NCBI GenBank assembly: GCA_965214875.1
Contig: OZ243980.1
Location: 1,496,009-1,560,008, forward strand
Direction of reading: 5' to 3'
DNA length: 64,000 bases
DNA from: Arenicellales bacterium
GTDB taxonomy: Bacteria > Pseudomonadota > Gammaproteobacteria > Arenicellales > JAJDZL01
The notes under the pieces are model-generated. The model worked only from the letters and a program-made list of their open reading frames with translations, was not told the origin of the DNA and made no database searches. Position numbers and translations under genes: made by a program. This document shows positions 28,160-55,598 of the stretch, piece by piece (within the stretch, counting starts at the first letter, position 1; every line of letters begins with the position of its first letter).

Positions 28160-28168
28160 CCCCCCCCC
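28160..28168 (+). repeat. Homopolymer C9 inside the 5' end of the autotransporter gene
   Basis: Counted directly: ...agctttccg CCCCCCCCC tccttcaac... Confidence 0.95.
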
Positions 28169-28236
28169 TCCTTCAACTAAGGCCGCATAGATTCCGGCCG
28201 TCCCGGTCTGGCCGGGCGCTGGTCCCGGCAATCGCC

Positions 28237-31200
28237 ATGCTGGCGCTTTGCGCCTCCCCCGCGCAGGCCGCGAACGAATGCGGCGAACTCGACCCTGACA
28301 ACTCCCGGTCCATCGTTTGCGCGGCCGGCGATTCGGCCGGCGACTACGACGCATCCGAAGGCAACATCTTCTACGAGATTTCGGACCGGGATGCCGACTA
28401 CCGGTTCGAGGTCCGCGAAGGGGTGGTCATCACGGGGGTGCGCAGCAACAAGTCGCAGGCGCTCGAGGAGGACAACGTCGGCGGCGAGCCCCAGGACGAC
28501 CACGGCCGGCGGAACTACAGGCCAGGTGGTGTCCTGGGCGATCCCAAGAATCCCGTGGAGGGGGATCCGCCGCACGCCTTGTACGGCGGCATCTTCATCG
28601 ACACGGACGAGGAGTTCGACGGCGACATCGCGCTGGAGTCGCGGGCCGACATCACGGTGATGAACGAGCCCTTCTCCACCGACGACCCGAACCTGAGAGG
28701 ACAAAGGCGCGAGGGCTTGCACGCTGTCTCCGTCGCCCGCGGCATCAGCGTCGCGCACTACGGCAGGTCGGGCGACCTCGACTTGAGGGTCGGGGGCTCG
28801 ATCCGCAGTCCCGGGACCGGCGTGTACGCCGAGATCGACAGCTTGCACCCCGACAAGGAGGGCAGCATGTTCAGGGACATCGACTTCGTCGGCGACATCG
28901 CCATCGATCTGCTGCCCGGCTTGAAAATCCTGACCGACGGCGAGGACGGTCATGGCGTGAGCGCGCAAAACTTCGGCAGCGGCGATATCACCATCACCGC
29001 GAGGAGGGCGAGGCGCTCCGGCGGGCCCGACATCCGGACCATGGGCCATGACGCCAGCGGGTTTCAGGTCAGACTGGGCAACCGGCATGACGTTTTCGAA
29101 AATGTCGAGGACCGCAATATAAACATCGATCTTGAGAATTTCCATATCAAAACCGAAGGCGGCTTCGGCACCGATAGCGGCCGGGATTTCGGGGCTCCCA
29201 GAGATTACTCGTTCGAAGGATCCAGGGGCTTGAAGGTTTACCACTTTACGAAAGGCGCGATGAACATCGCCCTGGCCGGCAGCAAGGTGGAGACCGAAGG
29301 CGTGCGCGGCCAGGGCATCTACGCGGTGTATTTTGCCGACGGCAGGCGAATGAATCAGGATGGCATGCTGCAGAATCACGGTCCCTTGCCTAAGAATACT
29401 AACGGCGGCGGGGCTATCAATATCGATCTCGCGGACACGCAGATCATGACCAGGGGAAACTATGCGGACGCGGTCTTCGGCTATCACGGGTCGGAAGGCG
29501 ATATCGACATCGATGTCGCTCGCGGCAGCGAAGTCACGACGGAGGGCGCGAACGCGCATGCCGTCGCCGGCCTGCATCACGGCACGGGCGATGTGATTGT
29601 CGATGTTCGCAGCAGCCGCATCGCCACGAAGGGCGCGGGGTCGGACGGCATCCGCGGCGGGCACCGCGGCGCGGGGGCCGTCATGATCACGGCCCGGAAC
29701 GCGGACATCAGGACGGAGGGCGATAAGGCGGACGGCATCTTCGCCTTCCATTTGGGGGCGGGCGGCACAGTCGATCTGACGAAATATGATCAGGCGGCGC
29801 CGGTATCGGCGGCGCGCGGCACCGGCCCTCGGGAACTTTTCGATGCGGCGCCGGCAGCGGATTTCGATTCGAGCGCAGGACCGCCCCGGATCCGTATCGA
29901 GGTCGATGGCGGAGAGATCGTCGCGGCCTGCGCCGGCGAGGACGCGGAGGACCCCGCCGACTGCCGGGGCCGGGGCATCGTCGCCGAGTTCGGCCCTGCC
30001 GCGCAAGACGGCGAGGCCCGGGTCGACATCGCCCGGGCGGTGGTCAGGGGCAGGCGCGCGGTCGAGTTCAAGGGCGGCCGGGGCGTGCTCAATCTCGCCG
30101 ACAGCCGTTTGGTCGGCAATGTGCTGTTTGCCGATGGCGACTACGACGACGTGCTGAGCATCACGCAAAGGTCCGGTTCCGGGCGGATTGGCGGAAGCGT
30201 CAATTTCCTTGGCGGCGACAACGACAAGCTGACGCTCGACATTGCCGACGGCCAGCACTTTGTTTTCGACGGGCCGGTTGTCGGGCTGGAGTCCTTCAGC
30301 AAAACGGGCGGCGGCTGGGTGCGCCTCGCCGACAATGCCGACTTCGCAAACAGCAGCCTGATGGTGGATGACGGGTATCTGGTCGTTGCCGGGCTGCTGA
30401 ATGCCGGCTCGGGCGAGCTGACCGTAAAAAACGCCGGCCGGCTGGTGTTCGAGGCGGGCCTTGACGGCTCGCCCGGCACCATCAGGCATGGGCAGATCAT
30501 TGCCGGCAGGCTGCGCTTTGAGGGCGTTCAAGGCGATGGCGGGCCGTTCGTGCTTTTTCAGCTGGACGAAGATTTGAGCGAAAAGCAGGTCGCTGAGGCG
30601 CGGCGGCTTCTGGCGGCATCGAACGGCTTGAATCTGCTCTATCCCGTCGAGTCGGTCACCGACGGGGCTGAGTCTGAGCTGGACGACCTGGAGATTCGGT
30701 CGCGGTCGGATGGCGGCGGCGAGTCGAAGGTCGGCATGATAGCGATCGATGATGACGGCATAGGCAAAGCCACGTTTGATCAGGAGGCGAAAGACAGGAT
30801 TGGCCGGCTGGATTTGCCGGGGACGTTCGTTGCCGGCGGGGGCGGGGGCACCGGCGGTTCCGGCGGGGGCGGTTCCGGCGGCGGGGGCGGCATTCTCGGC
30901 CTCGGCCTGCTGGCGGTGCTGCTGGGCGCTTTCCTTGGCGGCGGCGAGGAGGCGGATGCGGGCTTTGCCGAATACGGCCTGGGCTTTGCGCGGCCGGCCC
31001 ATGTCGCCGCGGCCGACGAGCGCGGCGTGCTGACCTTGCGCGAAGCGGGCGGGCGGCCCTACCGGCTGTGGGTGCGCACCGGCGCGGGCGCCCAGGCGCT
31101 GCCGATGGCCGGAGTCCCGGGCCTTGGCGCGGACGGCCTGGAGATCGGCTTCAGCCTGCGCGGCGGGGACGGCTTCCGTCTGAGCGCCTCGGCGGTGCCC

Positions 31201-31878
31201 GAGGCGGCGGCGCGGGCGGACGCGCTGAGGCTGTCCGCCGAGGGCTCGGCGCTGGCGCTTAGCGGCGGCTGGAGCGACGGGCGGCGCTTTGCGGGGCTGC
31301 GCCTGTCGCAGGGCGCCTTCGAGGCGGCCTCGGTGGTGGCCAATCCGGCGGCCGGCGGGGCGCTGCTGAGCCGGGCCCGGCTCGATGGCCGGCAGGCGCA
31401 GCTGCGGGCGGGCCTGCACCTCGATTCGGAACGCTGGCGGTGGACCCCGTCGGTCGCATTTCGCGCGGGCTCCTTCAGGCAGGGCGCGCACACGGCGCAA
31501 GGCGCGGCCCTCAGGGCGGAGGTCCCCGCGTTCGAGCAGGACTACGACAGCTTACAGCTGGGACTGAGGATGGCCGCGAAGGGGTGGCTGGACCTCGCCG
31601 GCGGCAAGTGGCGGCCGCAGCTGAAGCTCGGCACGGTGCGCACCTCGGCGGGCGGCGCCCGGTCGGCGGGGCTGGCCCAGTCCGACCGGCTCGGGGTGCT
31701 GAGCTTCACCACGCGGGCCGGCATCCGGGCCCTGCCGGAGACGGTCCATTCGCTGAGCTTCGGCGCGCAGGTGAAGGCTGGCGGCGGGCGGGCAGCATGG
31801 CGGTTCGGCCTCGCCGGACTCGAGGCCGACGGCGAGAAGCACTACGCGGCGCTGGCCGGCTACCGGCTGAGATTCTGA
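28237..31878 (+). CDS. Autotransporter (type Va) outer-membrane protein; the true start is probably ATG 28112 after a 1-nt correction in the C9 tract
   Basis: 1213-aa ORF. The passenger has degenerate beta-helix-like repeats (..GDIDIDVARGSEVTTEGANAHAV.., ..AVMITARNADIRTEGDKADGI..). A Gly-rich linker GGGGGTGGSGGGGSGGGGG follows, then a ~300-aa C-terminal domain with alternating-hydrophobic strands ending ..HYAALAGYRLRF (aromatic terminal residue typical of OM beta-barrels). I counted about 72% G+C at 28201-28300. Confidence 0.8.
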   Translation: MLALCASPAQAANECGELDPDNSRSIVCAAGDSAGDYDASEGNIFYEISDRDADYRFEVREGVVITGVRSNKSQALEEDNVGGEPQDDHGRRNYRPGGVLGDPKNPVEGDPPHALYGGIFIDTDEEFDGDIALESRADITVMNEPFSTDDPNLRGQRREGLHAVSVARGISVAHYGRSGDLDLRVGGSIRSPGTGVYAEIDSLHPDKEGSMFRDIDFVGDIAIDLLPGLKILTDGEDGHGVSAQNFGSGDITITARRARRSGGPDIRTMGHDASGFQVRLGNRHDVFENVEDRNINIDLENFHIKTEGGFGTDSGRDFGAPRDYSFEGSRGLKVYHFTKGAMNIALAGSKVETEGVRGQGIYAVYFADGRRMNQDGMLQNHGPLPKNTNGGGAINIDLADTQIMTRGNYADAVFGYHGSEGDIDIDVARGSEVTTEGANAHAVAGLHHGTGDVIVDVRSSRIATKGAGSDGIRGGHRGAGAVMITARNADIRTEGDKADGIFAFHLGAGGTVDLTKYDQAAPVSAARGTGPRELFDAAPAADFDSSAGPPRIRIEVDGGEIVAACAGEDAEDPADCRGRGIVAEFGPAAQDGEARVDIARAVVRGRRAVEFKGGRGVLNLADSRLVGNVLFADGDYDDVLSITQRSGSGRIGGSVNFLGGDNDKLTLDIADGQHFVFDGPVVGLESFSKTGGGWVRLADNADFANSSLMVDDGYLVVAGLLNAGSGELTVKNAGRLVFEAGLDGSPGTIRHGQIIAGRLRFEGVQGDGGPFVLFQLDEDLSEKQVAEARRLLAASNGLNLLYPVESVTDGAESELDDLEIRSRSDGGGESKVGMIAIDDDGIGKATFDQEAKDRIGRLDLPGTFVAGGGGGTGGSGGGGSGGGGGILGLGLLAVLLGAFLGGGEEADAGFAEYGLGFARPAHVAAADERGVLTLREAGGRPYRLWVRTGAGAQALPMAGVPGLGADGLEIGFSLRGGDGFRLSASAVPEAAARADALRLSAEGSALALSGGWSDGRRFAGLRLSQGAFEAASVVANPAAGGALLSRARLDGRQAQLRAGLHLDSERWRWTPSVAFRAGSFRQGAHTAQGAALRAEVPAFEQDYDSLQLGLRMAAKGWLDLAGGKWRPQLKLGTVRTSAGGARSAGLAQSDRLGVLSFTTRAGIRALPETVHSLSFGAQVKAGGGRAAWRFGLAGLEADGEKHYAALAGYRLRF

Positions 31879-31999
31879 CCGGACCGGACAACAGGAGGAT
31901 TGCCGCAAGGGCGCAAGGCGCGGTAGCCCTCCAAGTCTAAATGCCGCAGAGCGCAACGGCCCGAAACCCGCGCCGGAGTTTTTTGCGGACGAGTCTCCG

Positions 32000-32011
32000 C
32001 CCCCCCCCCCC
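32000..32011 (+). repeat. Homopolymer C12 in the unassigned spacer after the autotransporter
   Basis: Counted directly: ...gagtctccg CCCCCCCCCCCC aattcatcg... Confidence 0.95.
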
Positions 32012-32370
32012 AATTCATCGCCTTGGGAAATTCCGGACAGGCCGGCGCTGAAAAAGCGCATGAAGCAGAAACAGGGCCAAGGACCGGCAATGGGCGCAAG
32101 CGTCCAAGCTGAAACAGCCGCTTTCGCGGTTGCGGCGCCAAGGCCGCCCAGCACCCGAATCATCCCGGCCGCCTCGCTCAGATCCCTCAACGCCGCACTT
32201 GGACTCGATGTGCATCGGCTCAAATCTCACATCCAGCATTTGGTGCGGTGATGTGAAGCAGGCGCATTGGCGCCGAAACCGCTGCAGATGGATGAGACTG
32301 TGGAAATATTCCGTTTTTGCATAAATATCATCCTATTAAAAATGAAATATCTTTGAACACAACAACATAA

Positions 32371-32381
32371 CCCCCCCCCCC
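32371..32381 (+). repeat. Homopolymer C11 abutting the left inverted repeat of the IS30-like element
   Basis: Counted directly: ...aacaacataa CCCCCCCCCCC attccactatgaagtgcaacacc... Confidence 0.95.
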
Positions 32382-32480
32382 ATTCCACTATGAAGTGCAA
32401 CACCCTGGAGGTGGGTGGGGTGTTGCAAACGGCCGGCAGGCGGATGACAATCTCCATGTCAACCACAACGGAGAGCTGTC

Positions 32481-33613
32481 ATGCACAAGTGCTACCACCA
32501 GCTGGCCTATCACGAACGATGCCGGATCAAGGTCCTGCTGTCAAGGGGGTTTTCGATGCGCGGCATCGCCGGTGACCTGAACCGGAGTCCGGCCACGATC
32601 AGCCGCGAGGTCGCCCGCAACCGGGGAGGACGCGGCTACCGGCACGGGCAGGCCCAGGAGAAGGCTGTCGCCCGCCGCAGCGAGGCGTCGGGCGCACCCC
32701 GCAAGCTGACCGAGGCGCTGTGGCGGCGCATCACTGGCCTGCTGAGGCAGGGCTGGAGTCCGGAGCAGGTCGAGGGTCGCCTGAAGCGTCTGGGCGAGGA
32801 GACGGTGGGCCGGGAGTGGATCTGCCGGCAGGTCCGGGCGGACCGCAAGGCCGGGGGCGACCTGTGCCTGTGCCTGAGGCGACGGGGCCGGAAGCCGAAC
32901 TGGAAGGGCGGGCGGCATGCCGGTCGGGGCCGCATTCCGGGGCGGGTGGACATTGCCGAGCGTCCTGCGGCGGTGGAGGAGAAGAGCCGGGTCGGGGACT
33001 GGGAGCTGGACACGATCGTCGGCGCGATGCACCGGGGGGGGGGGCTTTGCTGTCCTCGGTGGATCGGGGGTCCTGGTTCACCATCCTGGAGCTTCTGGCC
33101 GGCAAGGCCGCGGCACCGGTGACCGAGGCCCTGCTGCGGCGCCTGGGGCCGTTCCGCGACCGGACACACACCCTGACCGCGGACAACGGCAAGGAGTTCG
33201 CCGGCCACGAGGAAGTGGCGGCCGGGCTGGACGCGGGGTTCTACTTCGCGATCCCGTACCATTCCTGGGAGCGCGGCCTGAACGAGCGCGTCAACGGCCT
33301 GGTGCGCCAGTACTTCCCGAAGGGCGCCGACTTCCGCCAGGTCGCGGCGGAGCAGGTGCGCGAGGTCGAGGACCGGCTGAACCACCGCCCCCGCAAGGTG
33401 CTGGGCTACCGCACGCCCTACGAGGTCTTCCACGGGGGACTGGCCCCGCCCGGACCCTGCCGCCCGGACGGTCCCGCGCCGCGCCCGCCAAGGGCGGGCG
33501 ATGCACCCGTACGCCCGGCATCGGGCCTTGCAATGCCGCCCGGCACTGTCTACAATGCCGGAAAGTCGGGATTGTCACCGCTTCGGGGCCGAACGAACAC
33601 TCCGCTCCCCTGA
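32481..33613 (+). pseudogene. IS30-family DDE transposase, frameshifted in a G11 tract
   Basis: The N-terminal frame (32481..) reads YHQLAYHERCRIKVLLSRGFSMRGIAGDLNRSPATISREVARN...WSPEQVEGRL...GDWELDTIVGAMHRGGG. It continues in another frame (to 33613): ALLSSVDRGSWFTILELL...TLTADNGKEFAGH...YFAIPYHSWERGLNERVNGLVRQYFPKGADF...LNHRPRKVLGYRTPYEVF. The switch is exactly at the G11 tract. Confidence 0.8.
33034..33044 (+). repeat. Homopolymer G11 inside the IS30-like transposase gene
   Basis: Counted directly: gatgcacc GGGGGGGGGGG ctttgctgtcc. G12 or G9 would restore ..HRGG(G)ALLSSVDRGSWF.. Confidence 0.95.
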
Positions 33614-33614
33614 T

Positions 33615-33665
33615 TGCCCCCTGCCTGTCCATGAAGGCGTAGCCTTCATGGACAGGCAGGGGGCA
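33615..33665. repeat. Perfect 24-bp-arm palindrome (3-nt loop) at the right end of the IS30-like element
   Basis: TGCCCCCTGCCTGTCCATGAAGGC gta GCCTTCATGGACAGGCAGGGGGCA. It starts right after the transposase stop and ends at the right IR. It may be a terminator or a subterminal structure. Confidence 0.9.
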
Positions 33666-34122
33666 GTGTTGCACTTCGGAGTGGAACTGGGGAACTGATT
33701 ATTTGCCGATCCTAGTTAATATTGGAACACTTTTACAGTCTCGGATGCGCCGTGCTGCAAACTGCTTCTTAACTCGCAGATGCAGTTGAATCGTCGTGCC
33801 TTCGTTTATGCCTGTGGATCGCCTAGCTGTTGGATTTCGCATAAAAATAGGATTTTCCCATGCCATTGGAACCACGCGATTGATCGTTTTCGATCATCGA
33901 TTTGCGCGTACGAACTGACTTTTTCGTTCTAGTGGTGTATGTGTATGCGCCATCGGATTTGTGCTACGCAATCAGGGTCTGCAGTGCGGCATACATGCCC
34001 GGGAGGTGTCGGTGCGTCTTGCGCAGTCTGAACGAATGCGTTATCTGTTGCCGCCGTGCGGTTTCATTGCAAACTATCCAAGTTTCACAACGTACAATTG
34101 ATCTATACTATGCATCCGTTGT

Positions 34123-38997: not shown

Positions 38998-39696
38998 TTG
39001 GCTATTTCCGGTTTTTGTTCTCGCACGTGCTTATAGTTCATTTATATGCGCCAATCGGCATCGCCGCTACAATCAAACGCCGCCAAGACCAGGCGCATTG
39101 GTGAAATGCCAGGTACGCCGATGCTTATTATAGTGGACAAGCCCGCCTCCTGCGATTACGCTGACACGCAAAGAATAAAAGCATGAATTCTTCAATATCA
39201 GCAAGTTGTATGTTGTAGTTCTTAAAAAGCAATGCTGAACCGGATGAACAAATCATGATGAAGGCGTGAAAGCGCCGCATGTTTGAATCTGCCTGCATAT
39301 TGATGGTGGCATTGGGGCTATGCTTGACGCAGATTTGCGTGTGCTGCAAAAGGGCAGCGCGCATGTCGGGTCGATTTCGGCAACAAAAGAGGTCGCAGAT
39401 AGAAGTTCAAATCGTGTTGCACAAAATCGCTTTTGTTGCTTGATTTTACAAGATTTTTAGTTTACTCTTACGCCACTTAAGGAGGATGCCTTTGCCAGTC
39501 GCAAGGCAAGTCAAAAACAACCGTTGCGCGACACAATTATTCGGTCGCACCCGTATCTGTTTGCCGATGTTTCGCTTTTGTCCGTTTCAGATCAGGAACT
39601 GTCGCATTTGCGAAAGACTATTGGCAACGATTAACCTATTGTTTACACGTTGTGCCGCGCTTGGCAGTGCAACGACAAAGCTGGGGTATTCAACTA

Positions 39697-40410
39697 ATGA
39701 ACAATCCTGATAACGCAGAACAAATGGATGATATCGATCTGTCGGCGCTTAGCGACGAAGATTTGGTCGTACAGATGCATGACGATCTTTATGATGGACT
39801 CAAAGAAGAAATAGAAGAGGGCACCCGCATTCTGCTTGGTCGCGGCTGGGAACCTTATCGGGTTCTGCAAGACGCATTGGTGGAAGGAATGAGGATCGTC
39901 GGCATCGATTTCAGGGATGGCATTCTGTTTGTGCCGGAAGTCCTCATGTCGGCGAATGCGATGAAGGGCGGGATGGCTATTTTGCGACCGCTGCTGGCGG
40001 AAACCGGCGCCCCCACGATCGGAAAGATGGTTATCGGCACGGTCAAAGGCGATATTCACGATATCGGCAAGAATCTGGTCGCAATGATGCTTGAAGGGGC
40101 CGGATTTGAAGTCATCAATATAGGCATCAATAATCCGGTTGAGAACTATCTGGAAGCGATGGATGAGCATAAGCCGGAACTGCTTGGCATGTCCGCATTG
40201 CTCACCACCACAATGCCCTACATGAAAGTCGTTATCGACACATTGGTTGAGCAAGGCATTCGCGAAGAGTATGTTGTTATTGTCGGTGGCGCACCCTTGA
40301 ACGAAGAGTTTGCGGAAGCGATTGGCGCAGATGCCTACTGTCGCGATGCGGCGGTTGCGGTTGAAACCGCAAAAACTTTCGTATCTAAATTGAGGGCGCA
40401 GAGCGCGTAA
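39697..40410 (+). CDS. Corrinoid (cobalamin-binding) methyl-carrier protein, MtbC/MtgC type
   Basis: B12-binding_2 cap helix domain plus a Rossmann B12 domain with the DxHxxG motif GDIHDIGKN and ..SALLTTTM...VGGAPL. Confidence 0.85.
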   Translation: MNNPDNAEQMDDIDLSALSDEDLVVQMHDDLYDGLKEEIEEGTRILLGRGWEPYRVLQDALVEGMRIVGIDFRDGILFVPEVLMSANAMKGGMAILRPLLAETGAPTIGKMVIGTVKGDIHDIGKNLVAMMLEGAGFEVINIGINNPVENYLEAMDEHKPELLGMSALLTTTMPYMKVVIDTLVEQGIREEYVVIVGGAPLNEEFAEAIGADAYCRDAAVAVETAKTFVSKLRAQSA

Positions 40411-40466
40411 TAGCCCTTTTCATCTAAACATAAATTCTAACCCCCTCGTTTAGGCGGAGACCTGCG

Positions 40467-41381
40467 ATGACGGAAACAGCTATTTCCTCTGAAACCAAAA
40501 CTGTAGTGATTGGCTACGAGCATCCGTTTTGCGTTATTGGCGAACGGATTAATCCGACAGGACGCAAGCTGCTTGCCGCAGAAATGGCGGCAGGGGACTA
40601 CAGCCGTGTCGAATCTGATGCGCTGGCGCAGGTCAATGCTGGCGCGCACATGCTCGATGTCAATGCCGGCATTCCGCTAGCGGACGAACCTCGCATTCTG
40701 GCCGAGTGCATCCAGCTGGTGCAATCGGTCACCGATGTGCCGTTATCAATCGACTCATCGATCGTTGCCGCGCTTGAAGCTGGGCTTGAAGTCTATAAGG
40801 GTCGACCGCTTGTCAATTCGGTAACTGGCGAGGAAGAGCGGCTCGAGACGGTGTTGCCTCTGGTGAAAAAATACGATGCGGCGGTGGTCGCGATATCGAA
40901 CGATGAAACCGGTATCTCCGAAGATCCCGATGTTCGTTACACGGTCGCGAAAAAAATTGTTGAACGTGCAGAAGACTACGGGATCAAGCGTTGTGATGTA
41001 GTTGTTGATCCATTAGTGATGCCGATCGGAGCTATCGGATTGGCCGGAAGGCAAGTCTTTCGAATCGTTCAGCGTTTGCGTGAAGAATTGAAAGTCAATA
41101 CGACCTGCGGTGCGTCGAACATCAGCTTCGGGTTGCCGAATCGTCACGCATTGAACGCGTCATTCCTTTCCATGTCGATTGGAGCCGGCATGACATCTGC
41201 AATTACCTCTCCGCTGCATGAAGAGATCATGACTTCGGTGATGGCGGCAAATGTCATGATGGGCACAGACCGCGAATGCAGGCAGTGGATCCGAAAATTC
41301 CGGGCGCCAATTCCTGATGCTGTAAATGTTGATCGCCCGGCAGGTCGTCGAAATGGTCGTCGGCGTCGGCAATACGCCTAG
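40467..41381 (+). CDS. Methyl-corrinoid:tetrahydrofolate methyltransferase (pterin-binding, MtgA/AcsE-like)
   Basis: IGERINPTGRKLLAAEM...MLDVNAG...PLSIDSS...LVNSV is the pterin-binding (DHPS-like) barrel signature. It lies directly after the corrinoid protein. Confidence 0.8.
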   Translation: MTETAISSETKTVVIGYEHPFCVIGERINPTGRKLLAAEMAAGDYSRVESDALAQVNAGAHMLDVNAGIPLADEPRILAECIQLVQSVTDVPLSIDSSIVAALEAGLEVYKGRPLVNSVTGEEERLETVLPLVKKYDAAVVAISNDETGISEDPDVRYTVAKKIVERAEDYGIKRCDVVVDPLVMPIGAIGLAGRQVFRIVQRLREELKVNTTCGASNISFGLPNRHALNASFLSMSIGAGMTSAITSPLHEEIMTSVMAANVMMGTDRECRQWIRKFRAPIPDAVNVDRPAGRRNGRRRRQYA

Positions 41382-41538
41382 CTTGGTCGGATGCTGGCAT
41401 GGCTGATAGTGAAAATTTTCTGCCAGATACATGCGTTTGATAGCGGTGCTTGCCGCTTATCTCTCCCTTCGGCGCTGATTTGGCCAATGCTGCCGCTTTT
41501 TCGATAGATTGACTGCTTCCCGCCAACAATCGGACGCG

Positions 41539-43536
41539 ATGGTTGTCTTTACGCCGTCTGGGCGGCGTGGTCGATTTGCGATAGGCACAACCATATTGCA
41601 GGCGGCTAGAGCTCTTGGCGTCGATCTGGATTCTGTTTGTGGCGGCCGCGCTATGTGCGGGCGTTGCCAGGTAGTGCTAAGTGTCGGCGCTTTTGCCAAG
41701 CATGGCGTCAATTCAGATCCGAACCATTTGTCTTCGATAAGTGTCTTGGAGAAGGAATACTCCAAGACCAATGAACTGAAACCGGAACGGCGGCTCGGAT
41801 GCTCTGTTGAAATTCTTGGCGATGTGGTTATCGATGTGCCGCCGGATAGCCAGGTTCATCGCCAGGTGGTTCGAAAACGCGCCGAGGTGCATGCGATTAA
41901 TCTTGACCCTGTAGTGCGGCTGTACTACGTAGATGTCCAAGAGCCCAATATGCACGATCCTTCTGGCGATTTGCAACGGCTTAAGGATGCGTTGGAATTC
42001 GAATGGCGTTTGGAAAATCTCGCCTGCGACTTGCGACAGATTCAGAATTTGCAGCAAGCATTGCGTCAGGGCGAATGGAGTGTCACGTGCGCCGTACACG
42101 ACGGGTCGCAGATTGTGGCAATCTGGCCGGGATTTAGCAACAGTGCTTTCGGCATCGCTTTCGACATCGGTTCGACCACAATCGCAGCGCATCTTTGCGA
42201 TCTCTCCAGCGGTGAGGTTGTTGCAGCGTCGGGTGCGATGAACCCTCAGATCCGATTCGGCGAGGATCTTATGAGCCGCGTGTCGTATCTGATGATGAAC
42301 CCTGGCGGAGAGCATGATATGACGCGCGAAGTTCGCAAGGCGATACAGAAGCTTGCTGAAGAAGTGTGTCAAGAGCACGGCATCAGTGCAGATGATGTGC
42401 TCGATGTAGTATTTGTGGGAAACCCCATCATGCAGCACTTGCTGCTCGGAGTGAGCCCAATTGAACTGGGCGGAGCGCCGTTCGCGCTGGCAACTGACGA
42501 AGCGGTCAGCGTATGGGTATCCGAGCTGGATCTAAAGTTTCATCAGAATGCCCGAGCTTTCGTTTTGCCTTGCATCGCCGGGCATGTCGGTGCCGATACG
42601 GCGGGCATGATACTTTCCGAACAGCCGTATGCCCATGACGAGTTGATGTTGCTGGTAGATGTTGGAACCAATGCGGAAATCGTGCTAGGCAATCGCCATA
42701 GGCTCCTTGCAGCATCGAGTCCTACCGGTCCGGCGTTCGAAGGTGCGCAGATTAGCGGCGGTCAGCGCGCGGCGCCAGGCGCCATTGAGCGCGTTAGAAT
42801 CGATCGTGAAACATTGGAACCGAAGTTCAAAGTTATTGGTTGCGATTTGTGGTCGACGGATCCGGATTTTGAAAATGCCGTCCAAGCGACTGGCGTGACA
42901 GGGATTTGCGGTTCCGGAATTATCGAGGCGATTGCTGAGATGTATTTGGCGGGAGTCATCGATCCGGATGGAGTGGTGCAATCGAGCAAGGCGGATATCA
43001 GCGGCAGAATTGTCGCAGAAGGCCGAACCTATGCCTATGTGATGAACGATAGTAATCCTCGGATCAGGATTACGCAAAACGATGTTCGAGCCATCCAGCT
43101 CGCAAAAGCGGCGCTTTACGCGGGCATCCGTCTGCTGATGGATCGAATGGGCATCGATGTGGTTGATCGTATTCGATTGGCCGGCGCTTTCGGCAGTCAC
43201 ATTGATGTCAAATATGCGATGATTCTCGGGCTAGTGCCGGACTGCAAGCTTGACAATGTCACCTCGGCGGGCAACGCTGCCGGTACAGGAGCGCGGATTG
43301 CGTTGCTTGATCGCAATTCGAGAAGCGAAATTAGTCAAGTTGTCCGTAATGTCGAGAAAATTGAAACTGCGGTCGAATCGCAGTTTCAGAAGCACTTCGT
43401 TGAAGCGATGGCGATTCCGCATAAAGTTGACCCATTTCCCGAATTGAGCAAAGTTGTCGATTTGCCCCGGCGGTCAGGAAAATATGGCGCTCAAAATACA
43501 GGCAGGCGCCGCCGCGGTCGTCGAACTGGCACTTGA
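41539..43536 (+). CDS. Corrinoid reductive-activation enzyme (RACE; N-terminal 2Fe-2S ferredoxin + ASKHA/DUF4445 ATPase)
   Basis: N-terminal plant-type ferredoxin CGGRAMCGRCQV, then FGIAFDIGSTTIAAHL... and LLVDVGTNAEIVLG (ASKHA phosphate-binding motifs). This is the typical RamA/RACE architecture. Confidence 0.8.
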   Translation: MVVFTPSGRRGRFAIGTTILQAARALGVDLDSVCGGRAMCGRCQVVLSVGAFAKHGVNSDPNHLSSISVLEKEYSKTNELKPERRLGCSVEILGDVVIDVPPDSQVHRQVVRKRAEVHAINLDPVVRLYYVDVQEPNMHDPSGDLQRLKDALEFEWRLENLACDLRQIQNLQQALRQGEWSVTCAVHDGSQIVAIWPGFSNSAFGIAFDIGSTTIAAHLCDLSSGEVVAASGAMNPQIRFGEDLMSRVSYLMMNPGGEHDMTREVRKAIQKLAEEVCQEHGISADDVLDVVFVGNPIMQHLLLGVSPIELGGAPFALATDEAVSVWVSELDLKFHQNARAFVLPCIAGHVGADTAGMILSEQPYAHDELMLLVDVGTNAEIVLGNRHRLLAASSPTGPAFEGAQISGGQRAAPGAIERVRIDRETLEPKFKVIGCDLWSTDPDFENAVQATGVTGICGSGIIEAIAEMYLAGVIDPDGVVQSSKADISGRIVAEGRTYAYVMNDSNPRIRITQNDVRAIQLAKAALYAGIRLLMDRMGIDVVDRIRLAGAFGSHIDVKYAMILGLVPDCKLDNVTSAGNAAGTGARIALLDRNSRSEISQVVRNVEKIETAVESQFQKHFVEAMAIPHKVDPFPELSKVVDLPRRSGKYGAQNTGRRRRGRRTGT

Positions 43537-46220: not shown

Positions 46221-48206
46221 CTATGTTTTTGTCTTATAACTATCTGAATATGCATATGAATAAATCTGCGACTCAATAAATATGCCATCGATGCCGAGTG
46301 TTCCCACTATGATATCTTTTCTTTTTGACGAAATGACAGGATTTCTCGCATTTGATTCCAAAGCCGATTTTTCTACCATCGATTCCAGTTCTGATTGTGC
46401 AAAATTGGCAGCGTCTTCCAGATTGCCAAAATCTTTCATTCCAAGCGGCGTATGTGCTCGATAGACTCCTTCAGCGGGCGCTGTAACCAGTCCGGACATT
46501 CTTTGAGAGATGCCGCCTGCTACAGCGCCGACCGCGTTGCCGACCGCGGCGTGTTCGGGGATGTCTAGGGGTGTATTCAATCTGCGGCAGATTTCCGGAT
46601 AAAGGGGCGCTGCCGGGGCGCCGACCGCGACGACGGTTCCGCCAAAAGAGAAGTCGACTTTTAAAGTGTCGTTTGCATTGGTCGGCGAGATGCCTTTGCG
46701 CAATAGTATCGAGTCGATGCTATTGGTCTTATGCATATCAAATTCCGATGCGATCGCTGCGCTGACGAGCACTTCGCAGCTTCGCTCGATCACCTGATCG
46801 ATCACTGCTTGGGAAAATTTTTCAGCATTGCTTCGAACAGGTTTCGCATCTCTTCTGAATCCGCGAGCCCACAATTGCGCCCCCAATTCGGCGGCCGGTT
46901 TCGACCAGCGGTCCATCTTATCGAGGACATGCAACGAATCGGTCGGCGTAAATGCGGCAAGGATGGCGATATCCATGGCGCGCAAGCGCAAAAACGCCCT
47001 GAACATGCGCAGGTCCCGGTATAGCTTTTCGCAACTGACCGGTCCGGTGCGTATCTGCTCTAGCATTACGCGCTCGCTTTTCGCGAGTGCTGCGGTATTT
47101 GCCATGTCCTTGCGCAAAACGGCAAAGCATCCCTGGTATTCTTGCGGGCGCCGCGCGACCTGGCTTCGCAGAGTTTCGATAATGGCAGGGTTTCGCTGGG
47201 CTAGCACGCAAAGCGGGAGTGCTCGCTCTGGTCCGATTTCGATCGGCTCACCAAAGCCTACCTGGCTATCGCCGCCGAGTCCGACGGTATAGATATCAAC
47301 CGCCTCGACAAACGTTCTAAACCCGCCAACAGTCGCTCCTTCGCGAGCAACTCTTGGCGTTCCGTTTTCGAGCATTGCCACATCGGTTGTGGTGCCTCCG
47401 ATGTCGGATACAAGTCGGACATCGGCTTTCGACAGGCGACATGCACCGACCACGCTGGCCGCCGGCCCGGACAAAATTGTTTCGACAGGCCGTGAAGCCG
47501 CCATTTCTGCGCCAATCATCGAGCCGTCACCCTTTACGACCATGAATGGAGAGTCGATTCCGCGGTGCTTTAGCTCGTCGCGAACCGTTCGAATCAGCTC
47601 GGAAATCGGTGCGATCAATCGAGCATTCAGCGCGGTTGTCATGGCGCGGCGAGGACCGTTAAGCTTTGAGCTTAGCTCGAAGCTGCAGGTGACCGGGGTG
47701 TCGGTCATTTCCAGGATTAGATCTCGAACAGCGATTTCGTGCTCAGTATTGCGAACCGAAAAAATTCCGGCAACTGCGAACGCGGTGATGCTATCTCGAT
47801 GTCGTTCGATGGCTTGTCTTGCGGCATCAAGATCGAGTGGTTCGATCTCATCTCCTAAAGCGGTGTGACCGCCGCGTATCATTTCAACCGGATCGTTGCG
47901 AATGGCATGATTCAACTGAGCGCGTTTAAGCGCATCATGACTGTGTCCGATCAGAAGCAGGCAGATTGTTCCTCCATGTCCCTCAACAATCGCATTTGTT
48001 GCCAGGGTGGTTGAGATGGAAGTGAGTTCGACGATATCTGAAAGTGGTCGTTTACTGCAATTGTCGATTCGCTGTATTACTTCTCGGATTCCGATCGACA
48101 GGTCATGGTGAGTTGTTAATGACTTGGCAGTGTGGACGACGCCTTTTTTGCCATTAAAGAGGACTGCATCCGTGTATGTTCCTCCTGTGTCGATTCCTAG
48201 TCGCAT
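46221..48206 (-). CDS. Hydantoinase/oxoprolinase-family (ASKHA) protein
   Basis: True N-terminus MRLGIDTGGTYTDAVLF (Hydant_A_N), later DIGGTTTDVAML. The 59 extra N-terminal residues in the track ORF read into the IS481-like left end and are not genuine. Confidence 0.8.
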   Translation of the reverse strand: MRLGIDTGGTYTDAVLFNGKKGVVHTAKSLTTHHDLSIGIREVIQRIDNCSKRPLSDIVELTSISTTLATNAIVEGHGGTICLLLIGHSHDALKRAQLNHAIRNDPVEMIRGGHTALGDEIEPLDLDAARQAIERHRDSITAFAVAGIFSVRNTEHEIAVRDLILEMTDTPVTCSFELSSKLNGPRRAMTTALNARLIAPISELIRTVRDELKHRGIDSPFMVVKGDGSMIGAEMAASRPVETILSGPAASVVGACRLSKADVRLVSDIGGTTTDVAMLENGTPRVAREGATVGGFRTFVEAVDIYTVGLGGDSQVGFGEPIEIGPERALPLCVLAQRNPAIIETLRSQVARRPQEYQGCFAVLRKDMANTAALAKSERVMLEQIRTGPVSCEKLYRDLRMFRAFLRLRAMDIAILAAFTPTDSLHVLDKMDRWSKPAAELGAQLWARGFRRDAKPVRSNAEKFSQAVIDQVIERSCEVLVSAAIASEFDMHKTNSIDSILLRKGISPTNANDTLKVDFSFGGTVVAVGAPAAPLYPEICRRLNTPLDIPEHAAVGNAVGAVAGGISQRMSGLVTAPAEGVYRAHTPLGMKDFGNLEDAANFAQSELESMVEKSALESNARNPVISSKRKDIIVGTLGIDGIFIESQIYSYAYSDSYKTKT

Positions 48207-48242
48207 TCGAGGGCACTGTCCGGGTTCAGATACATGTGAGAC

Positions 48243-48289
48243 CGTCCGCCTCCTCCCGAAGGACGCAGTCCGAAGGGAGGAGGCGGACG
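48243..48289. repeat. 15-bp-stem hairpin within a ~51-bp insertion unique to the left end of IS481-like copy C
   Basis: CGTCCGCCTCCTCCC gaaggacgcagtccgaa GGGAGGAGGCGGACG. Copies B and D read ...acatgcgggcgc(a/g)cgaaaa... at this point without it. Confidence 0.85.
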
Positions 48290-48317
48290 CGCGAAAATTT
48301 TTGAGGTAGCATGGCGC

Positions 48318-49376
48318 TTGATTAAAACCCAACAGCCGAAAGGCGGGAGAGAGCGCCATGCAAACCGAATGTCCGCACCGCAAATTTTATCGTCTCGATC
48401 CAATCCGCGACGAACTTTCGCCGCAGGCCGCCGAGCGCTTCGACAATATCGCGCTGTTCGACCAGCTTCGCCGCGAGGGCGCGACCGAAGCGACCGCCCT
48501 GAAGGGATCGGCTGCTCCCGGGCCACGCCCTGCCGCTGGAAGCGGCGCCTGCGCGAGCAGGGCGTCCGCGCCCTGGCCGACCGCTGCCGCCGCCCGCACC
48601 GGGTGCGGCAGCGCCAATGGACCGACCGCGAGCTCGAGCTGGTGCGCCAGGCGCGGCAACGCTTTCCGCTGCGGGGGTGCGCCAAGATCCGCGCCGTGCT
48701 GGCGCGCGAGCGCGGCTTCGCGCCCAGCGAGTCCGCCACCGGACGCATGATCGCCCGCCTGGTTCGCACCGGCCAGGCCGAGCCCGTCGCGTTCCATTAC
48801 GGGCGCGTCAAGCCCAAGCGGCGGTGCAAGTTCGACCGCCACGCCCGGCGCCGGCGCTACGGCGCCCGCGGGCGAAAGCCCGGCCAGATGGTGCAGATCG
48901 ATCATACGGGCGTCGCCATCGAGGCCGGCTTCGCGGTCAAGGAGTCCGAGGCCGTATGCCCGGTCTCTAAGCTTTGCTGCATGCGCGCCTATTCGCGCGC
49001 CACCGCCACCTGCGCCACAAGATTCCTCGGCCATCTGATCCGCCAGGCGCCGTTCAATATCGGGCCGGTGCAGGTCGACGGCGATAGCGAGTCCGCGTTC
49101 GAGTTCGAGACCGCCTGCCGGCGCCGCGGCATCGCCCTGTTCGCGCTGCCGCCCAGAAGCCCCAAGCATAGCGGCTGCGCGGAACGCGCCAACGCGTCCG
49201 GCCGCTGCGAGTTCCACCGGTTCTGCGCCGGCGCGCCGGGCGTGGGCGCCCTGAACGTCGAGCTGGCCGAATTCGGGCGCCTCTGCAACGACTGCCGCCC
49301 GCATCAGTCGCTCGGACAAACGGCGCCCATGCAGGCGTATAATGAAAACTTCAACCAAAGCGCGCTTGCCGCCTGA
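48318..49376 (+). CDS. IS481/IS3-superfamily integrase-type (rve, DDE) transposase
   Basis: 352-aa ORF: ..RWKRRLREQGVRALADRCRRPHR.. (HTH region) ... QMVQIDHTGV ... FNIGPVQVDGDSE ... LPPRSPKHSGCAERAN (rve core). The likely authentic N-terminus MQTECPHRKFYRLDPIRDEL.. (ATG 48358) is in another frame. Copy D shows the two parts were once contiguous, so copy C carries a 1-nt deletion near 48505. Confidence 0.7.
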   Translation: MIKTQQPKGGRERHANRMSAPQILSSRSNPRRTFAAGRRALRQYRAVRPASPRGRDRSDRPEGIGCSRATPCRWKRRLREQGVRALADRCRRPHRVRQRQWTDRELELVRQARQRFPLRGCAKIRAVLARERGFAPSESATGRMIARLVRTGQAEPVAFHYGRVKPKRRCKFDRHARRRRYGARGRKPGQMVQIDHTGVAIEAGFAVKESEAVCPVSKLCCMRAYSRATATCATRFLGHLIRQAPFNIGPVQVDGDSESAFEFETACRRRGIALFALPPRSPKHSGCAERANASGRCEFHRFCAGAPGVGALNVELAEFGRLCNDCRPHQSLGQTAPMQAYNENFNQSALAA

Positions 49377-49471
49377 AAAGTCTCATATGTATTGAACTCG
49401 TACACCGAATTGGTTTACAATGGGGGCATTCCTATTCATTCGGAGATTGAAAAATGCTGAAGCTGAACTCA

Positions 49472-49482
49472 CCCCCCCCCCC
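49472..49482 (+). repeat. Homopolymer C11 between a start codon and a signal-peptide coding region
   Basis: Counted directly: atgctgaagctgaactca CCCCCCCCCCC atccagctagg. Confidence 0.95.
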
Positions 49483-49523
49483 ATCCAGCTAGGTTAGCTG
49501 CCGTCGGGCTAGCGCTTGCCGCG

Positions 49524-49988
49524 TTGTTGGTCTTGCCTGTGACTGCGCAGGCACAAGTGAAAGAGGAATGCGGTGCGGAAGACATCACCATAACGCTGCA
49601 TAAAAGCACCCCAAATACCTCTGTTGTTGAAGGCGTAAGCTCGACAATCGTATTCCGAAGAGATGCGGAAAAATGCTCCACGGATAATCCGCTCCCCTTT
49701 TGTGTCCGAATAATAGACACCACCCCATGCAATCCCGGTGATGCCACATGCTACCGCGGCACAGCCTATGCACATCAATCAAGAATTGTGAATCTTATAC
49801 CCCTCAACGCTCTTGAGCCTAGGGGACTAGAAAAGCTTTGCGGCCAAATGATAGCAGGTGCACCTCAAGTATTTCTCACTTACCGCACTTACAATAATTC
49901 CATCCGAGACTCCATTCCGAATGCGCTGCATATATTGATGATGAACCCGACGCGCATGCTAACCCTTGAAATTATGGACAACGACTGA
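49524..49988 (+). CDS. Hypothetical secreted Cys-rich protein; 5' end interrupted by C11, 3' end at an IS1380-like junction
   Basis: The frame is open from 49482 and encodes ..HPARLAAVGLALAALLVLPVTAQA/QVKEECGAEDITITL.. (signal peptide with an AQA cleavage site). The only RBS+ATG (GGAGA, ATG 49454) is in another frame upstream of the tract. The ORF ends ..LTLEIMDND exactly where the IS1380-like fragment begins. Confidence 0.5.
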   Translation: MLVLPVTAQAQVKEECGAEDITITLHKSTPNTSVVEGVSSTIVFRRDAEKCSTDNPLPFCVRIIDTTPCNPGDATCYRGTAYAHQSRIVNLIPLNALEPRGLEKLCGQMIAGAPQVFLTYRTYNNSIRDSIPNALHILMMNPTRMLTLEIMDND

Positions 49989-50377
49989 CATTTGTGCGAG
50001 CGCCTCGAGCAGGCGCCGCTCGCGGTGAAGATGCGACACGTCGTCCATGCACCGCCCGCCTTCGTGCAGCATCAGCATGAACGCGCTCAGAACCTCGCCG
50101 CTGCGGTAGCCCCGATTGCTGCCGGGCGATGCTATCCTGTCGTCGGCCGCCCGCTCCAGCCCCAGACGACCGAGCAGCTCCGCCGCCACCGCCAAGCCGG
50201 CTCGCGAAGCGGATTTCTTGCCGGTCGACTCGATCTTGCAGGGTAGAGCATCCATCAGCCTTGTACCGTTTGTGTCGTTCTCCGGCCTTCACCCGGAGGG
50301 TAACACCTCGAATGTTGGTAAAGCCTTATGATGCAAAATTTCCCGCTATTTTGCAGCCTCCTAATTGCCGATTAGGG
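49989..50377 (-). mobile_element. IS1380-like fragment (left end plus the first ~85 codons of the transposase)
   Basis: ORF 49959..50255 MDALPCKIESTGKKSASRAGLAVAAELLGRLGLE...RGYRSGEVLSAFMLMLHEGGRCMDDVSHLHRERRLLEAL parallels the 62200 transposase N-terminus. The upstream sequence (reverse complement ccctaatcggcaattaggaggctgcaaaatagcggg) matches the IS left end. Confidence 0.6.
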
Positions 50378-51375: not shown

Positions 51376-51427
51376 AATACTCGCCTGCTCATGCAGGTGT
51401 TCACTTTTTGCGAGAGGATTCGGCCAA

Positions 51428-52369: not shown

Positions 52370-53087
52370 GTGAAATTCGAGTCTCGCTAAAGTCCATTTT
52401 GCAAGTGTTCATATTAGAATAACTCAAGAATAGAATTTTTGTAATTTATCACTCTTGGGTTAATTTACCTAAGTTTAACAAATAATTATAGTTGGCGCAT
52501 TTTAAGAGATGGATATGAGTAAAAACTCATGCAATTAGGAATTTTTGTACTGCAACATTCAAGAAATATCGGCTATCATTATGTCACAGTTATGGTTTCG
52601 AATCATTGCAATATAGTAAGATGCAGCAATTTAGATCGCATTTTGCCTATTGCAGGGTACGCATTATTAACCGTGAATGAAATCAGGCGTGATATATTAA
52701 AAGGGCATGTTGTCGCAAAATAGACCATGCTAGCAGGGATGATGATGCCGGTGATGCCATGCAAAGCGCGCTGGGATAGAAAACTTCCCCATCTTCAATC
52801 GAATTAGCAAGGATGACCATTGAGCATGGACGCTCGCTTTTTTCTCCAATTGATCATTAGTCGGCTTCTGGCCTTATTGCCGTGCGCTGGCGGCGTTATG
52901 CAATACTGTCATCAAGTTGGGCTAGCAGACAGTATCAAATTGAATTTTGTTCGGTGCGCAACGAACCAATTCGATGGCTTGTTCGATCATGTTCAGTGAA
53001 CATGGAATTTACCATAAACGACTAAACAGGTTTCAACTCTATCTCCTTTTTTCTCTAACTCCTCCCTTTTTTAGTTAGCACTTTGCA

Positions 53088-53120
53088 CCGGAGACACCCT
53101 CTGTCTCCGGTTTTCTTTTT
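53088..53120 (+). terminator. Rho-independent terminator-like hairpin with no annotated gene upstream
   Basis: CCGGAGACA ccctc TGTCTCCGG TTTTCTTTTT: a 9-bp GC-rich stem followed by a T-tract on the + strand. Confidence 0.55.
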
Positions 53121-53378
53121 GAATTAAGATATCTAATCGCAGCTAGATTGCGTTAAAGAACATTGCTCCGGGTCGGTAGCAGACTTTATGGTTTCATGCT
53201 AAGATTTGCCGAGTGCTCGCCAATGATAGAATTTGCCGCGCAGTGATTTGCAATTGAGCTTCTGCCAAGCGGCATCCGACTTATGTCGCTCAATTTGTCT
53301 ATATTTGTCATGCGAAAACATTGGCATTTTCGCGAGATTCCAGTTACTACCGGCAATTTCGCGATAGAGAAATATCTG

Positions 53379-54896: not shown

Positions 54897-55361
54897 ACGT
54901 TCACGATCGTCGCTTACGCAAAAACTGCCATGACCGGTCAATACGAATAGGCACACGATATTGCGGTAGTTCGTGTGGTCGCGATGAGGCGTGATGCCGA
55001 TCTTGCCGATTTCATATTTTTGCAGCATCCAGTCGTTGAAGATAACAGGCTCGGCAAAAAACCCTTGTCCATCGATCGCCTCGCCGAAAAGGTTTTGAAA
55101 TTCGCGGGCTAGTTCCCCGAAGGTGCTTGTCGAACTAAGTTTATTTTGCAGTGTCATCCGTTGCAGTACGATGTTGGTGCCGCTGCCGACAGACTTCTTT
55201 GCTGTGCGAAGCGGCAATTGCCGCGCTTCGTGGAGCAAAGTGCGGCGGAATTCGTCTGAGATGATTGGAACCGAGACCGCCGGCAGGTATCGCAGCGAAG
55301 CGACCGCTCCTGCGAGATGAGCTGGCGAAGTGCTGAAGAAGTTTTTTATCGATTCATTCAT
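54723..55361 (-). CDS. Hypothetical protein (possible Fe(II)/2OG-dioxygenase-like fold)
   Basis: 212 aa. GITPHRDHTNY contains an HxD motif and a distal His lies in ..RRTFHYLEDI... The fold assignment is tentative. Confidence 0.4.
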   Translation of the reverse strand: MNESIKNFFSTSPAHLAGAVASLRYLPAVSVPIISDEFRRTLLHEARQLPLRTAKKSVGSGTNIVLQRMTLQNKLSSTSTFGELAREFQNLFGEAIDGQGFFAEPVIFNDWMLQKYEIGKIGITPHRDHTNYRNIVCLFVLTGHGSFCVSDDRERSNQQEIANMPGDVILMAAPGFIGLKRRTFHYLEDIRRERYVFGLRQDQTKMQVYHKS

Positions 55362-55588
55362 TTTCGCATTTCTTTAAATGAGGATTAGGAACCCCAGGCG
55401 GCAAGGTTACTGAATTCGCTGATTCAGATCAGGAAATCTGCTTGAAGCAAGGGGATTATATGTTTGGGTTGACAAGGTCCGTAAGATGGACGGGGAAAGC
55501 CGGAAAAGTCATACAGCCTGCAGAAAACAATTGCACAACTATTGTTGTAAACATTACGCACATGACAGGAGGGCAACATGATGAAGCA

Positions 55589-55598
55589 CCCCCCCCCC
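55589..55598 (+). repeat. Homopolymer C10 four codons after a strong RBS+ATG
   Basis: Counted directly: acAGGAGGgcaacATGATGAAGCA CCCCCCCCCC ataagcgttaaattg|TGTCCGGGG (IS481-like copy D starts 15 nt after the tract). Confidence 0.95.

Follow-up and report, generated by a model that had tools for sequence, protein, structure and literature searches.

Why does a single stretch of bacterial DNA carry six homopolymers of C or G, each 9-12 nucleotides (nt) long, and why do three of them lie just behind a start codon? The question is raised by 64,000 nt from an Arenicellales bacterium (GenBank assembly GCA_965214875.1, contig OZ243980.1, positions 1,496,009 to 1,560,008), a stretch called here the window, in which the tracts are numbered 1 to 6 in order of position. 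Homopolymer contingency loci are textbook features of Neisseria, Haemophilus, Campylobacter, Helicobacter and Bordetella, and such loci are taken as a sign that the bacterium is in an arms race with phages or with a host that is adaptive or discriminates in some other way. We consider it likely that tracts 1 and 5 are contingency switches in the genes of two secreted proteins, that tract 6 is a relic of a further one, and that tracts 3 and 4 arose by the same slippage process on unconstrained DNA, in a lineage whose C/G runs are prone to slippage. The positions and frames of the tracts, the tracts of homologous genes, the length differences between copies and strains, and the positive selection on the gene behind tract 5 were observed directly.

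Six long C/G runs in the window

A full census of homopolymers returned C9 at 28160-28168 (tract 1), C12 at 32000-32011 (tract 2), C11 at 32371-32381 (tract 3), G11 at 33034-33044 (tract 4), C11 at 49472-49482 (tract 5) and C10 at 55589-55598 (tract 6), all confined to 28-56 kb of the window (features are on the + strand unless stated otherwise), and reproduced exactly the positions and lengths listed in an earlier note on this DNA. The same note had seen nothing comparable elsewhere, and the remaining C/G runs indeed reach at most 6 nt and the A/T runs at most 8 nt. The spectrum of run lengths is bimodal for C and for G: there are 393 C runs of length 3, 65 of length 4 and 11 of length 5, none of 6-8 and five of 9-12, and G runs have a ceiling of 6 (n=3) apart from the single G11. 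Chance was estimated analytically, from a model of independent and identically distributed letters and from extrapolated run-length decay. The model expects 0.8 (whole-window composition) to 1.3 (local 2-kb composition) C/G runs of at least 9 nt, where six were observed, and 0.06-0.14 runs of at least 11 nt, where four were observed; for the latter class, the rough earlier estimate of 0.2 expected runs has the right order of magnitude. Extrapolation of the decay gives about 0.08 runs of at least 9 nt against the observed six. Six C/G runs, four of them at least 11 nt long, are far beyond chance.

The placement of the tracts is non-random too, as the earlier note had held. Tracts 1, 5 and 6 follow an ATG at distances of 48, 18 and 11 nt, respectively, each ATG being preceded by a ribosome-binding site; tract 4 splits the transposase of an IS30-like insertion sequence (IS), tract 3 lies at the left end of the same element, and tract 2 is located in the spacer past the gene of a surface protein. 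If a potential contingency locus is defined as a homopolymer of about 7 nt or more in a 5' coding region or promoter, tracts 1, 5 and 6 belong to this class.

A poly-C tract in the leader of an autotransporter-like surface protein

Tract 1 (C9, 28160..28168) lies in the 5' coding leader of an autotransporter-like surface-protein gene (28112..31878), which begins at ATG 28112 behind an AAGGAG ribosome-binding site and encodes the leader MTEKMQRKGKSRLSF-PPP. The signal peptide (...AMLALCASPAQA|ANECG) and the 1213-amino-acid (aa) body of the protein (28237-31878) are in the frame next to that of ATG 28112, and at C9 the ATG frame meets a stop after 22 codons; the gene is OFF as assembled. When the tract length was varied in silico, an open reading frame (ORF) of 1,254/1,255 aa was obtained only at C7, C10 or C13, one nucleotide (C9 to C10) separating the assembled state from ON. 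Only the ON frame reaches both the signal peptide ...RALVPAIAMLALCASPAQA|ANECG, of Sec type as judged by eye, and the protein end GYRLRF. The database gene calls P0001 and P0002 start within the signal peptide, the call for the window protein at an internal Met; to a gene finder, a frameshifted switch looks like this.

Long C/G tracts recur in homologues of this gene. In an Arenicellales homologue with 55% identity (L001), the start reads GGAGG-N6-ATGC-G9 and is out of frame, and G10 would yield MRGGGRSHRLSGSLCCAALLGMLSLAGAPAQA. A Poriferihabitaceae locus that was recovered from two strains, in two assemblies (98.3% identity over 10 kb), reads ATGAAACCATGCTCATCATCTA followed by C24 in one (L003) and by C19 in the other (L007), C19 being in frame and C24 not. 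Two Paracoccaceae paralogues (L004, L005) carry C8 and C11 in the leader, 57-60 nt 5' of the main ATG, and a further homologue (L016) carries G20 in frame. Tracts are also implied by protein N-termini with eleven prolines (P0004), WGGG (P0013), PPPP (P0016) and PPPPP (P0022). No tract was found at the surface-protein gene of L006, L008, L009 and L010.

The passenger region is 35% identical over residues 1-508 to P0014 and P0015, which carry the autotransporter beta-domain PF03797. Self-similar BLAST matches with P0014 show internal repeats, weak DUF2807 and Beta_helix matches occur in one or two family members, and when the PDB was searched with a profile of the family, only Gly/Ser linkers matched. 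The GC content of the gene is 65-80%, against 54% for the window. We considered whether tracts 1 and 2 could be the recombination junctions of a GC-rich island and rejected this, as GC jumps at tract 1 yet stays at 62-68% for 250 bp past tract 2. Directly 3' of the surface-protein gene, three relatives encode a conserved lipoprotein of 286-291 aa (LTACGG..., end GLFWTPDM.GAFGAK; L008 6701-7564, L009 6737-7612, L016 6938-7798); the window lacks this gene and has tract 2 and the IS30-like element there instead.

Tract 5 and a small Cys-rich secreted protein

Tract 5 (C11, 49472..49482) lies in the start of an unrelated gene (49454..49988), for a small secreted Cys-rich protein of 177 aa when ON, with the leader MLKLNS-PPP and a signal peptide ending in LPVTAQA|QVKEECG. 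The gene start consists of GGAG-N8-ATG at 49454, the codons for MLKLNS and the C run; at C11 a stop follows after 12 codons, and the gene is OFF as assembled. In silico, C10 or C13 restored the 177-aa protein with the signal peptide ARLAAVGLALAALLVLPVTAQA|QVKEECG and six cysteines, so that this gene is likewise one nucleotide (C11 to C10) from ON.

There is only one close homologue of this protein (P0152, 74% identity), and through it alone a sister strain (L015) was reached, with a 12.4-kb syntenic stretch of 97.3% overall identity. In the sister strain, C13 stands in place of CA plus C11, the 13-nt span and the OFF frame being the same as in the window. Over the mature protein (49485-49988, compared with 5929-6435 of the sister strain) we counted 48 nonsynonymous and 4 synonymous differences, which gives a synonymous divergence (dS) of 0.033, a nonsynonymous divergence (dN) of 0.139 and a dN/dS of 4.2 (binomial P = 0.002 against neutrality). 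In four neighbouring genes, dS is similar (0.008-0.046) and dN/dS is 0.07-0.42. Both strains have an intact tract-5 ORF: they share an identical signal peptide and every cysteine, and a 3-nt indel leaves the reading frame undisturbed. Since a dN/dS of about 4 is combined with an intact ORF and a kept signal peptide and cysteines, we take the tract-5 gene to be functional and under strong diversifying selection, and not a pseudogene.

An exhaustive HMMER search added four remote homologues (167-192 aa, 28-34% identity), all with PPP to PPPPPPP after the initiator Met and before the signal-peptide core, which at the protein level suggests that the switch position is conserved in this family as well; a further match (P0156, 129 aa, 30% identity) begins inside the protein and is without such an N-terminus. 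The structure prediction for the tract-5 protein was unusable, with a predicted local distance difference test score (pLDDT) of 44. The possibility that it is the truncated N-terminus of an autotransporter was discarded, as the alignment is limited to the signal peptide and the ECG motif (hhalign probability 27%). A secreted protein of 190 aa whose N-terminus is weakly similar to that of the tract-5 protein is encoded about 1 kb 3' of the surface-protein gene in L008 (7718-8290): its ATG is followed by 5 codons and C10 (7735-7744), and it is OFF as assembled and ON at C8 or C11.

A promoter-like site precedes the gene (49392..49421, 33 nt before ATG 49454), with its -35 box TTGAAC in the right terminus of an IS481-like element, an 18-nt spacer and its -10 box TACAAT in the flank; this match to the consensus is consistent with IS-driven expression. 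Abutting the stop codon is a GC-rich fragment of a DDE_Tnp_1_4 (IS1380-like) transposase, found as a weak match on the - strand (49959..50255), and a similar fragment lies just 5' of the surface-protein gene in the metagenome-assembled genome (MAG) of the Arenicellales homologue (L001 4243-4617, - strand). Substitutions are found directly 5' of tracts 5 and 6 (window 49470-49471 and 55588, L015 5914-5926 and 12023), where CA has become CC and joined the run and A has become G, respectively, which suggests that point mutation is elevated at tract borders.

Tract 6 and the IS481-like copies

Tract 6 (C10, 55589..55598) follows AGGAGG-N5-ATGATGAAGCA. The layout of ribosome-binding site, ATG and C run is the same as at tracts 1 and 5, and an IS481-like copy begins 15 bp downstream with the left terminus TGTCCGGGGTCAGATACATG at 55614; on these grounds we read the tract as an orphan gene start. 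The frames from tract 6 read into the IS only, nothing gene-like follows the copy, and the sister strain shares both the copy and the C10. Tract 6 thus seems to be the surviving start of a third switch-type gene, cut off by an IS481-like insertion.

The IS481-like element is present in four copies, all damaged to some degree: copy A (27255..28020) is internally deleted, copy B (48217..49404) is nearly full length with an N-terminus frameshifted relative to the sister-strain copy, copy C (55614..56235) is degraded, and copy D (about 14855-15290, - strand) is damaged. The family assignment rests on HTH_32, rve_3 and weak LZ_Tnp_IS481 matches and on the termini TGTCCGGG... and ...GTACA in the four copies. 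Three of the four have a long C tract no more than 140 bp away, the right ends of copies A and B being 139 bp 5' of tract 1 and 67 bp 5' of tract 5, and the left end of copy C 15 bp past tract 6; this proximity is unlikely by chance. Copies B and C occupy the same sites in the sister strain, which has a 16-bp tandem duplication of the right IS481-like terminus (GTATTGAACCAGTACA GTATTGAACTCGTACA) at about 5817-5832 (window 49389). Around copy B (48000-49400), divergence from the sister strain is about 8-12%, against about 1% in the flanking genes, which suggests that the copy was replaced or gene-converted among IS copies. Directly past copy C there is a 71-nt inverted repeat (56227-56297 and 56412-56482, 82% complementary, 114 nt apart) that could be a hairpin element or resemble a miniature inverted-repeat transposable element.

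Tracts 2, 3 and 4 in probably unconstrained DNA

The IS30-like element (32372..33692) has imperfect terminal inverted repeats (CCCCCATTCCACT.../...AGTGGAACTGGGG) and is flanked by the target duplication AAC (32369-32371 and 33693-33695). It resembles the IS30 family in its transposase with HTH_38 and DDE (rve) domains, its imperfect terminal repeats and the 3-bp length of its duplication, and differs from the family in the two slippage expansions of the window copy; to our knowledge, homopolymers that grow in this way have not been described for IS30 elements. Transposase homologues number in the thousands and are of the IS30 family, one being named IS30 family transposase by its source. Four other copies of the element were analyzed, two with 98.9-99.6% (L011, L012) and two with 88% identity (L013, L014) to that of the window. 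In all four the left end is exactly C5 (CCCCCATTCCACT...) and the right end is ...GGAACTGGGG, and three of them have 3-bp target duplications (CGA, TTG and GTT).

Given the AAC/AAC duplication, tract 3 (C11, 32371..32381) consists of the last base of the target duplication and an IS terminal run of C10. The earlier note had described it as abutting the left inverted repeat; its location was right, and the run is not a separate one, since it is the terminal C5 of the IS itself, grown to C10. Tract 4 (G11, 33034..33044) interrupts the transposase at a conserved HRGALL motif and splits it into 32481-33122 (HTH_38) and the frame of 32720-33613 (rve, rve_3). A full-length transposase results in silico only at G6, G9 or G12, and intact relatives all read ...HRGALLSSVDR. 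The run is G6 and in frame in L011, G8 in L012 and G11 in the window. As the length differs among near-identical copies and relatives are single ORFs, G11 would be recent and copy-specific growth. Two runs have thus gained 5 nt each in one otherwise nearly unchanged copy (C5 to C10, G6 to G11), and tracts 3 and 4 are best read as recent copy-specific expansions, by slippage damage or drift, and not as conserved frameshift control. The two expansions should disable the element. A near-perfect palindrome of 51 nt (94%) at 33615-33665, in its 3' end, is kept in all other copies.

Tract 2 (C12, 32000..32011) is intergenic and GC-rich, 122 nt past the stop codon of the surface-protein gene. No promoter, no terminator and no similarity to any fetched locus was found for it, and its fold z-score is -0.28. 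Two candidate gene starts, a short ORF on the minus strand (ATGAATT-G12) and the plus-strand ATG 31932, were rejected, both being without a ribosome-binding site and a signal peptide. Most likely, tract 2 is another unconstrained expansion.

Proposed mechanism and alternative explanations

In the mechanism that we propose, long C/G runs would be slippage-prone in sponge-metagenome lineages of the window's kind. At tracts 1 and 5 such a run lies between a ribosome-binding site, an ATG and a short basic leader on one side and the hydrophobic core of a signal peptide on the other, where slipped-strand mispairing by ±1 nt during replication would connect the start codon to the secreted protein or disconnect it. 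Translation of the secreted proteins would be ON or OFF in a fraction of the cells within populations, and the phenotypic benefit may be evasion of host or phage recognition. Unconstrained runs would drift to a mutational equilibrium of about 9-12 nt. The same mutational process, acting on unconstrained DNA, would have expanded the IS30-like C5 to C10 and its in-frame G6 to G11, leaving the transposase frameshifted, and the IS481-like insertion 15 bp downstream would have destroyed the tract-6 gene. An insertion/deletion bias like that of Campylobacter jejuni would explain why selected and unselected tracts alike have 9-12 nt and why runs of 7-8 nt are missing. Of the two possibilities raised in the earlier note, contingency loci or a technical artefact, the former is supported at tracts 1 and 5 by toggling frames, by the tracts of homologues, by the locus with C19 and C24 and by the selection at tract 5; at tract 6 it survives only as a relic.

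Several observations weigh against this interpretation. Both putative switch genes are OFF in the window consensus, and the sister strain has tract 5 in the OFF frame as well. The spans of tract 5 (13 nt) and tract 6 (C10) are identical in the sister strain, that is, the window's own loci show no length polymorphism. For tracts 1 to 4, a same-locus comparator in another strain was not found: exact-protein look-ups of a 537-aa DRL oxidoreductase, of P0001 and of a 191-aa TPR protein gave no match, which leaves the island at 28-34 kb without a sister-strain counterpart. On neither strand does tract 2 show the layout of ribosome-binding site, ATG and signal peptide. A Pfam scan found no PF03797 in the window protein or in any of 13 family members, and the AlphaFold2 model of its C-terminal 373 aa is unusable (pLDDT 31); because of these two results the protein is labelled 'autotransporter-like' only. 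The ON and OFF calls were made from a long-read consensus, which even after polishing may contain errors of ±1 or represent a mixed population (PMC11392814). The OFF states would also be in line with a non-adaptive origin of all six tracts, in which weak homopolymer repair inflates unconstrained C/G runs to about 9-12 nt and the gene-start tracts mark decaying genes. In favour of such an origin, tracts 2, 3, 4 and 6 (4/6) lie in non-functional or broken DNA, the six tracts share a narrow range of 9-12 nt with no runs of 7-8 nt, and other decay is seen in the window, namely the pseudogenised aceK and the four degraded IS481-like copies. However, diverged homologues from two unrelated families again have C/G tracts at the corresponding 5' position, in-frame ON alleles exist among these homologues (C19, G20 and poly-Pro N-termini), and the intact tract-5 ORF, with its kept signal peptide and cysteines and a dN/dS significantly above 1, does not look like a neutral pseudogene. 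We therefore regard a wholly non-adaptive origin as rather unlikely.

For tract 4 the earlier note had proposed a frameshift-controlled transposase. Under such control the full-length form would be made only after transcriptional slippage or -1 ribosomal frameshifting, as in elements of IS1/IS3 type. The likeness is there: a -1 shift at a homopolymer links two consecutive frames. At G11 this shift, or one more G, brings the HTH part (32481-33122) and the DDE part together in one protein (377 aa at G12). The upstream ORF by itself would give an HTH-only protein, and such proteins act as regulators in other IS families. IS1/IS3 slippery motifs are typically A/T-rich, and the window run is of G. 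Unlike in IS1/IS3, the shift site lacks conservation from copy to copy, the 99%-identical copy having an in-frame G6 and another copy G8, and the ancestral state is a single ORF, the close intact relatives all being single ORFs of about 322 aa that read HRGALL. The terminal run of the same copy is also expanded, which points to copy-specific slippage damage, and we know of no IS30-family element that uses frameshifting. Programmed control of the transposase is accordingly very improbable. Sequencing or assembly artefacts, such as mis-called homopolymers or mis-restoration after homopolymer compression, are hardly credible as the source of the tracts. The contigs of relatives have metaMDBG-style names, homopolymers are the main class of residual error of metaMDBG (PMC11392814, PMC12859430), and lengths could err by ±1; this assembler compresses homopolymers when building minimizers, yet it takes the base sequence from the reads and polishes it by consensus (PMC11392814). 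Most genes of the window are intact, and outside the six tracts its runs end at 6-8 nt. Tracts 5 and 6 came out again, independently, in the assembly of a second sample, and IS copies differ by +2 to +5 nt, which is more than the usual error of a consensus. Tracts at the same functional position in homologues of independent assemblies, with C in some and G in others and at differing codon positions, are not artefact-like either. The existence of the tracts is hence no artefact, although ±1 errors may still occur in a consensus of the HiFi/metaMDBG type.

Comparison with known systems

Switching by slippage would bring the window close to several well-studied systems. In Neisseria meningitidis, nalP is a phase-variable autotransporter gene with a poly-C tract, and elements of the IS481 family are abundant in the Bordetella genome, as IS481-like copies are in the window. 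In B. pertussis, the tracts of the autotransporter genes tcfA (G9) and bapC (G11, C14) are the most variable homopolymer tracts of the species (PMC1891110). The window resembles this case in having poly-C/G of about 9-14 nt within the coding region of a large protein of autotransporter type, secreted or on the surface, where a change of ±1 truncates or restores the product, and in the OFF frame, in which reference genomes of B. pertussis are often found. It differs in that its tracts lie in the n-region of signal peptides, within the first 5-17 codons, whereas the tcfA tract begins at codon 130; in that uncultured sponge-type hosts, and no vertebrate pathogens, are concerned; in that homologue tracts reach 19-24 nt; and in that switching in the window is a prediction from sequence. 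Mismatch repair of the MutS/MutL type is missing in C. jejuni. Its G8-G9 tracts mutate mainly by insertion and its G10-G11 tracts mainly by deletion, the modal length being 9 (PMC3401435). The window shares with C. jejuni the bimodal run lengths and the clustering of tracts at about 9-11 nt; the C. jejuni tracts, in contrast, are mostly in genes of surface-glycan modification and not 5' of signal peptides.

Genomic context and relatives

With a GC of 54%, the window has a housekeeping gene content that is ordinary for proteobacteria: mpl, genes for an RND pump, for a P-type ATPase and for a TRAP transporter, and a corrinoid methyltransferase cluster. A GC-rich island (28.2-32.25 kb, 63-80% GC) carries the 1213-aa ORF, 3' of which the GC-rich IS30-like element and then a tRNA-Ala are found. 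By protein search, the 1213-aa protein is 100% identical to one database entry, and JGI sources are nearly devoid of these families. The surface protein has relatives in MAGs that bear the titles Arenicellales, Candidatus Poriferihabitaceae and Paracoccaceae and in the ENA assemblies ERZ25070844, ERZ25072448 and ERZ25070825, with contig names in the style of metaMDBG. A genome note on a sponge that mentions Poriferihabitaceae combined PacBio HiFi reads with metaMDBG assembly (PMC12859430). The window thus appears to come from a bacterium close to genomes assembled from marine-sponge metagenomes.

Two further regions were noted. The aceK gene for isocitrate dehydrogenase kinase/phosphatase (25152-26721) is spread over three reading frames and at least three ORFs and is pseudogene-like. 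The corrinoid-dependent methyltransferase cluster (39652-43536) encodes a B12-binding protein, a pterin-binding MtrH-like protein and an AcsV-like reductive activase.

Implications

The mechanism is well known; what the window and its relatives add is its occurrence in sponge-type bacteria, in two families of secreted proteins, one of them with a target at a dN/dS of about 4. No literature link between phase variation and sponge symbionts was found in the limited collection of literature that was searched. We put forward, as a serious but tentative possibility, that sponge bacteria of at least three orders (Arenicellales, Ca. Poriferihabitaceae and Paracoccaceae, plus the window lineage) share a poly-C/G switch in the signal-peptide n-region of horizontally shared surface proteins, comprising the autotransporter-like adhesin family and the Cys-rich family, and that stochastic surface variation is a general strategy in this ancient animal-microbe symbiosis. 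A drive acting across the lineage, by which C/G runs inflate to about 9-12 nt and up to 24, might be linked to the shared switch convention.

For annotation, these loci carry a warning, as switch genes are called as N-terminally truncated ORFs (P0001, P0002) and the ON and OFF states in the consensus of a long-read MAG are population averages. The two families offer concrete candidate host-interaction proteins for a symbiosis in which few are known. The findings suggest that sponge-associated bacteria may hedge the exposure of their surface against phagocytic recognition by the sponge, against phages or against competitors. If this is true, stochastic surface variation, known mainly from vertebrate pathogens, would extend to the sponge symbiosis.

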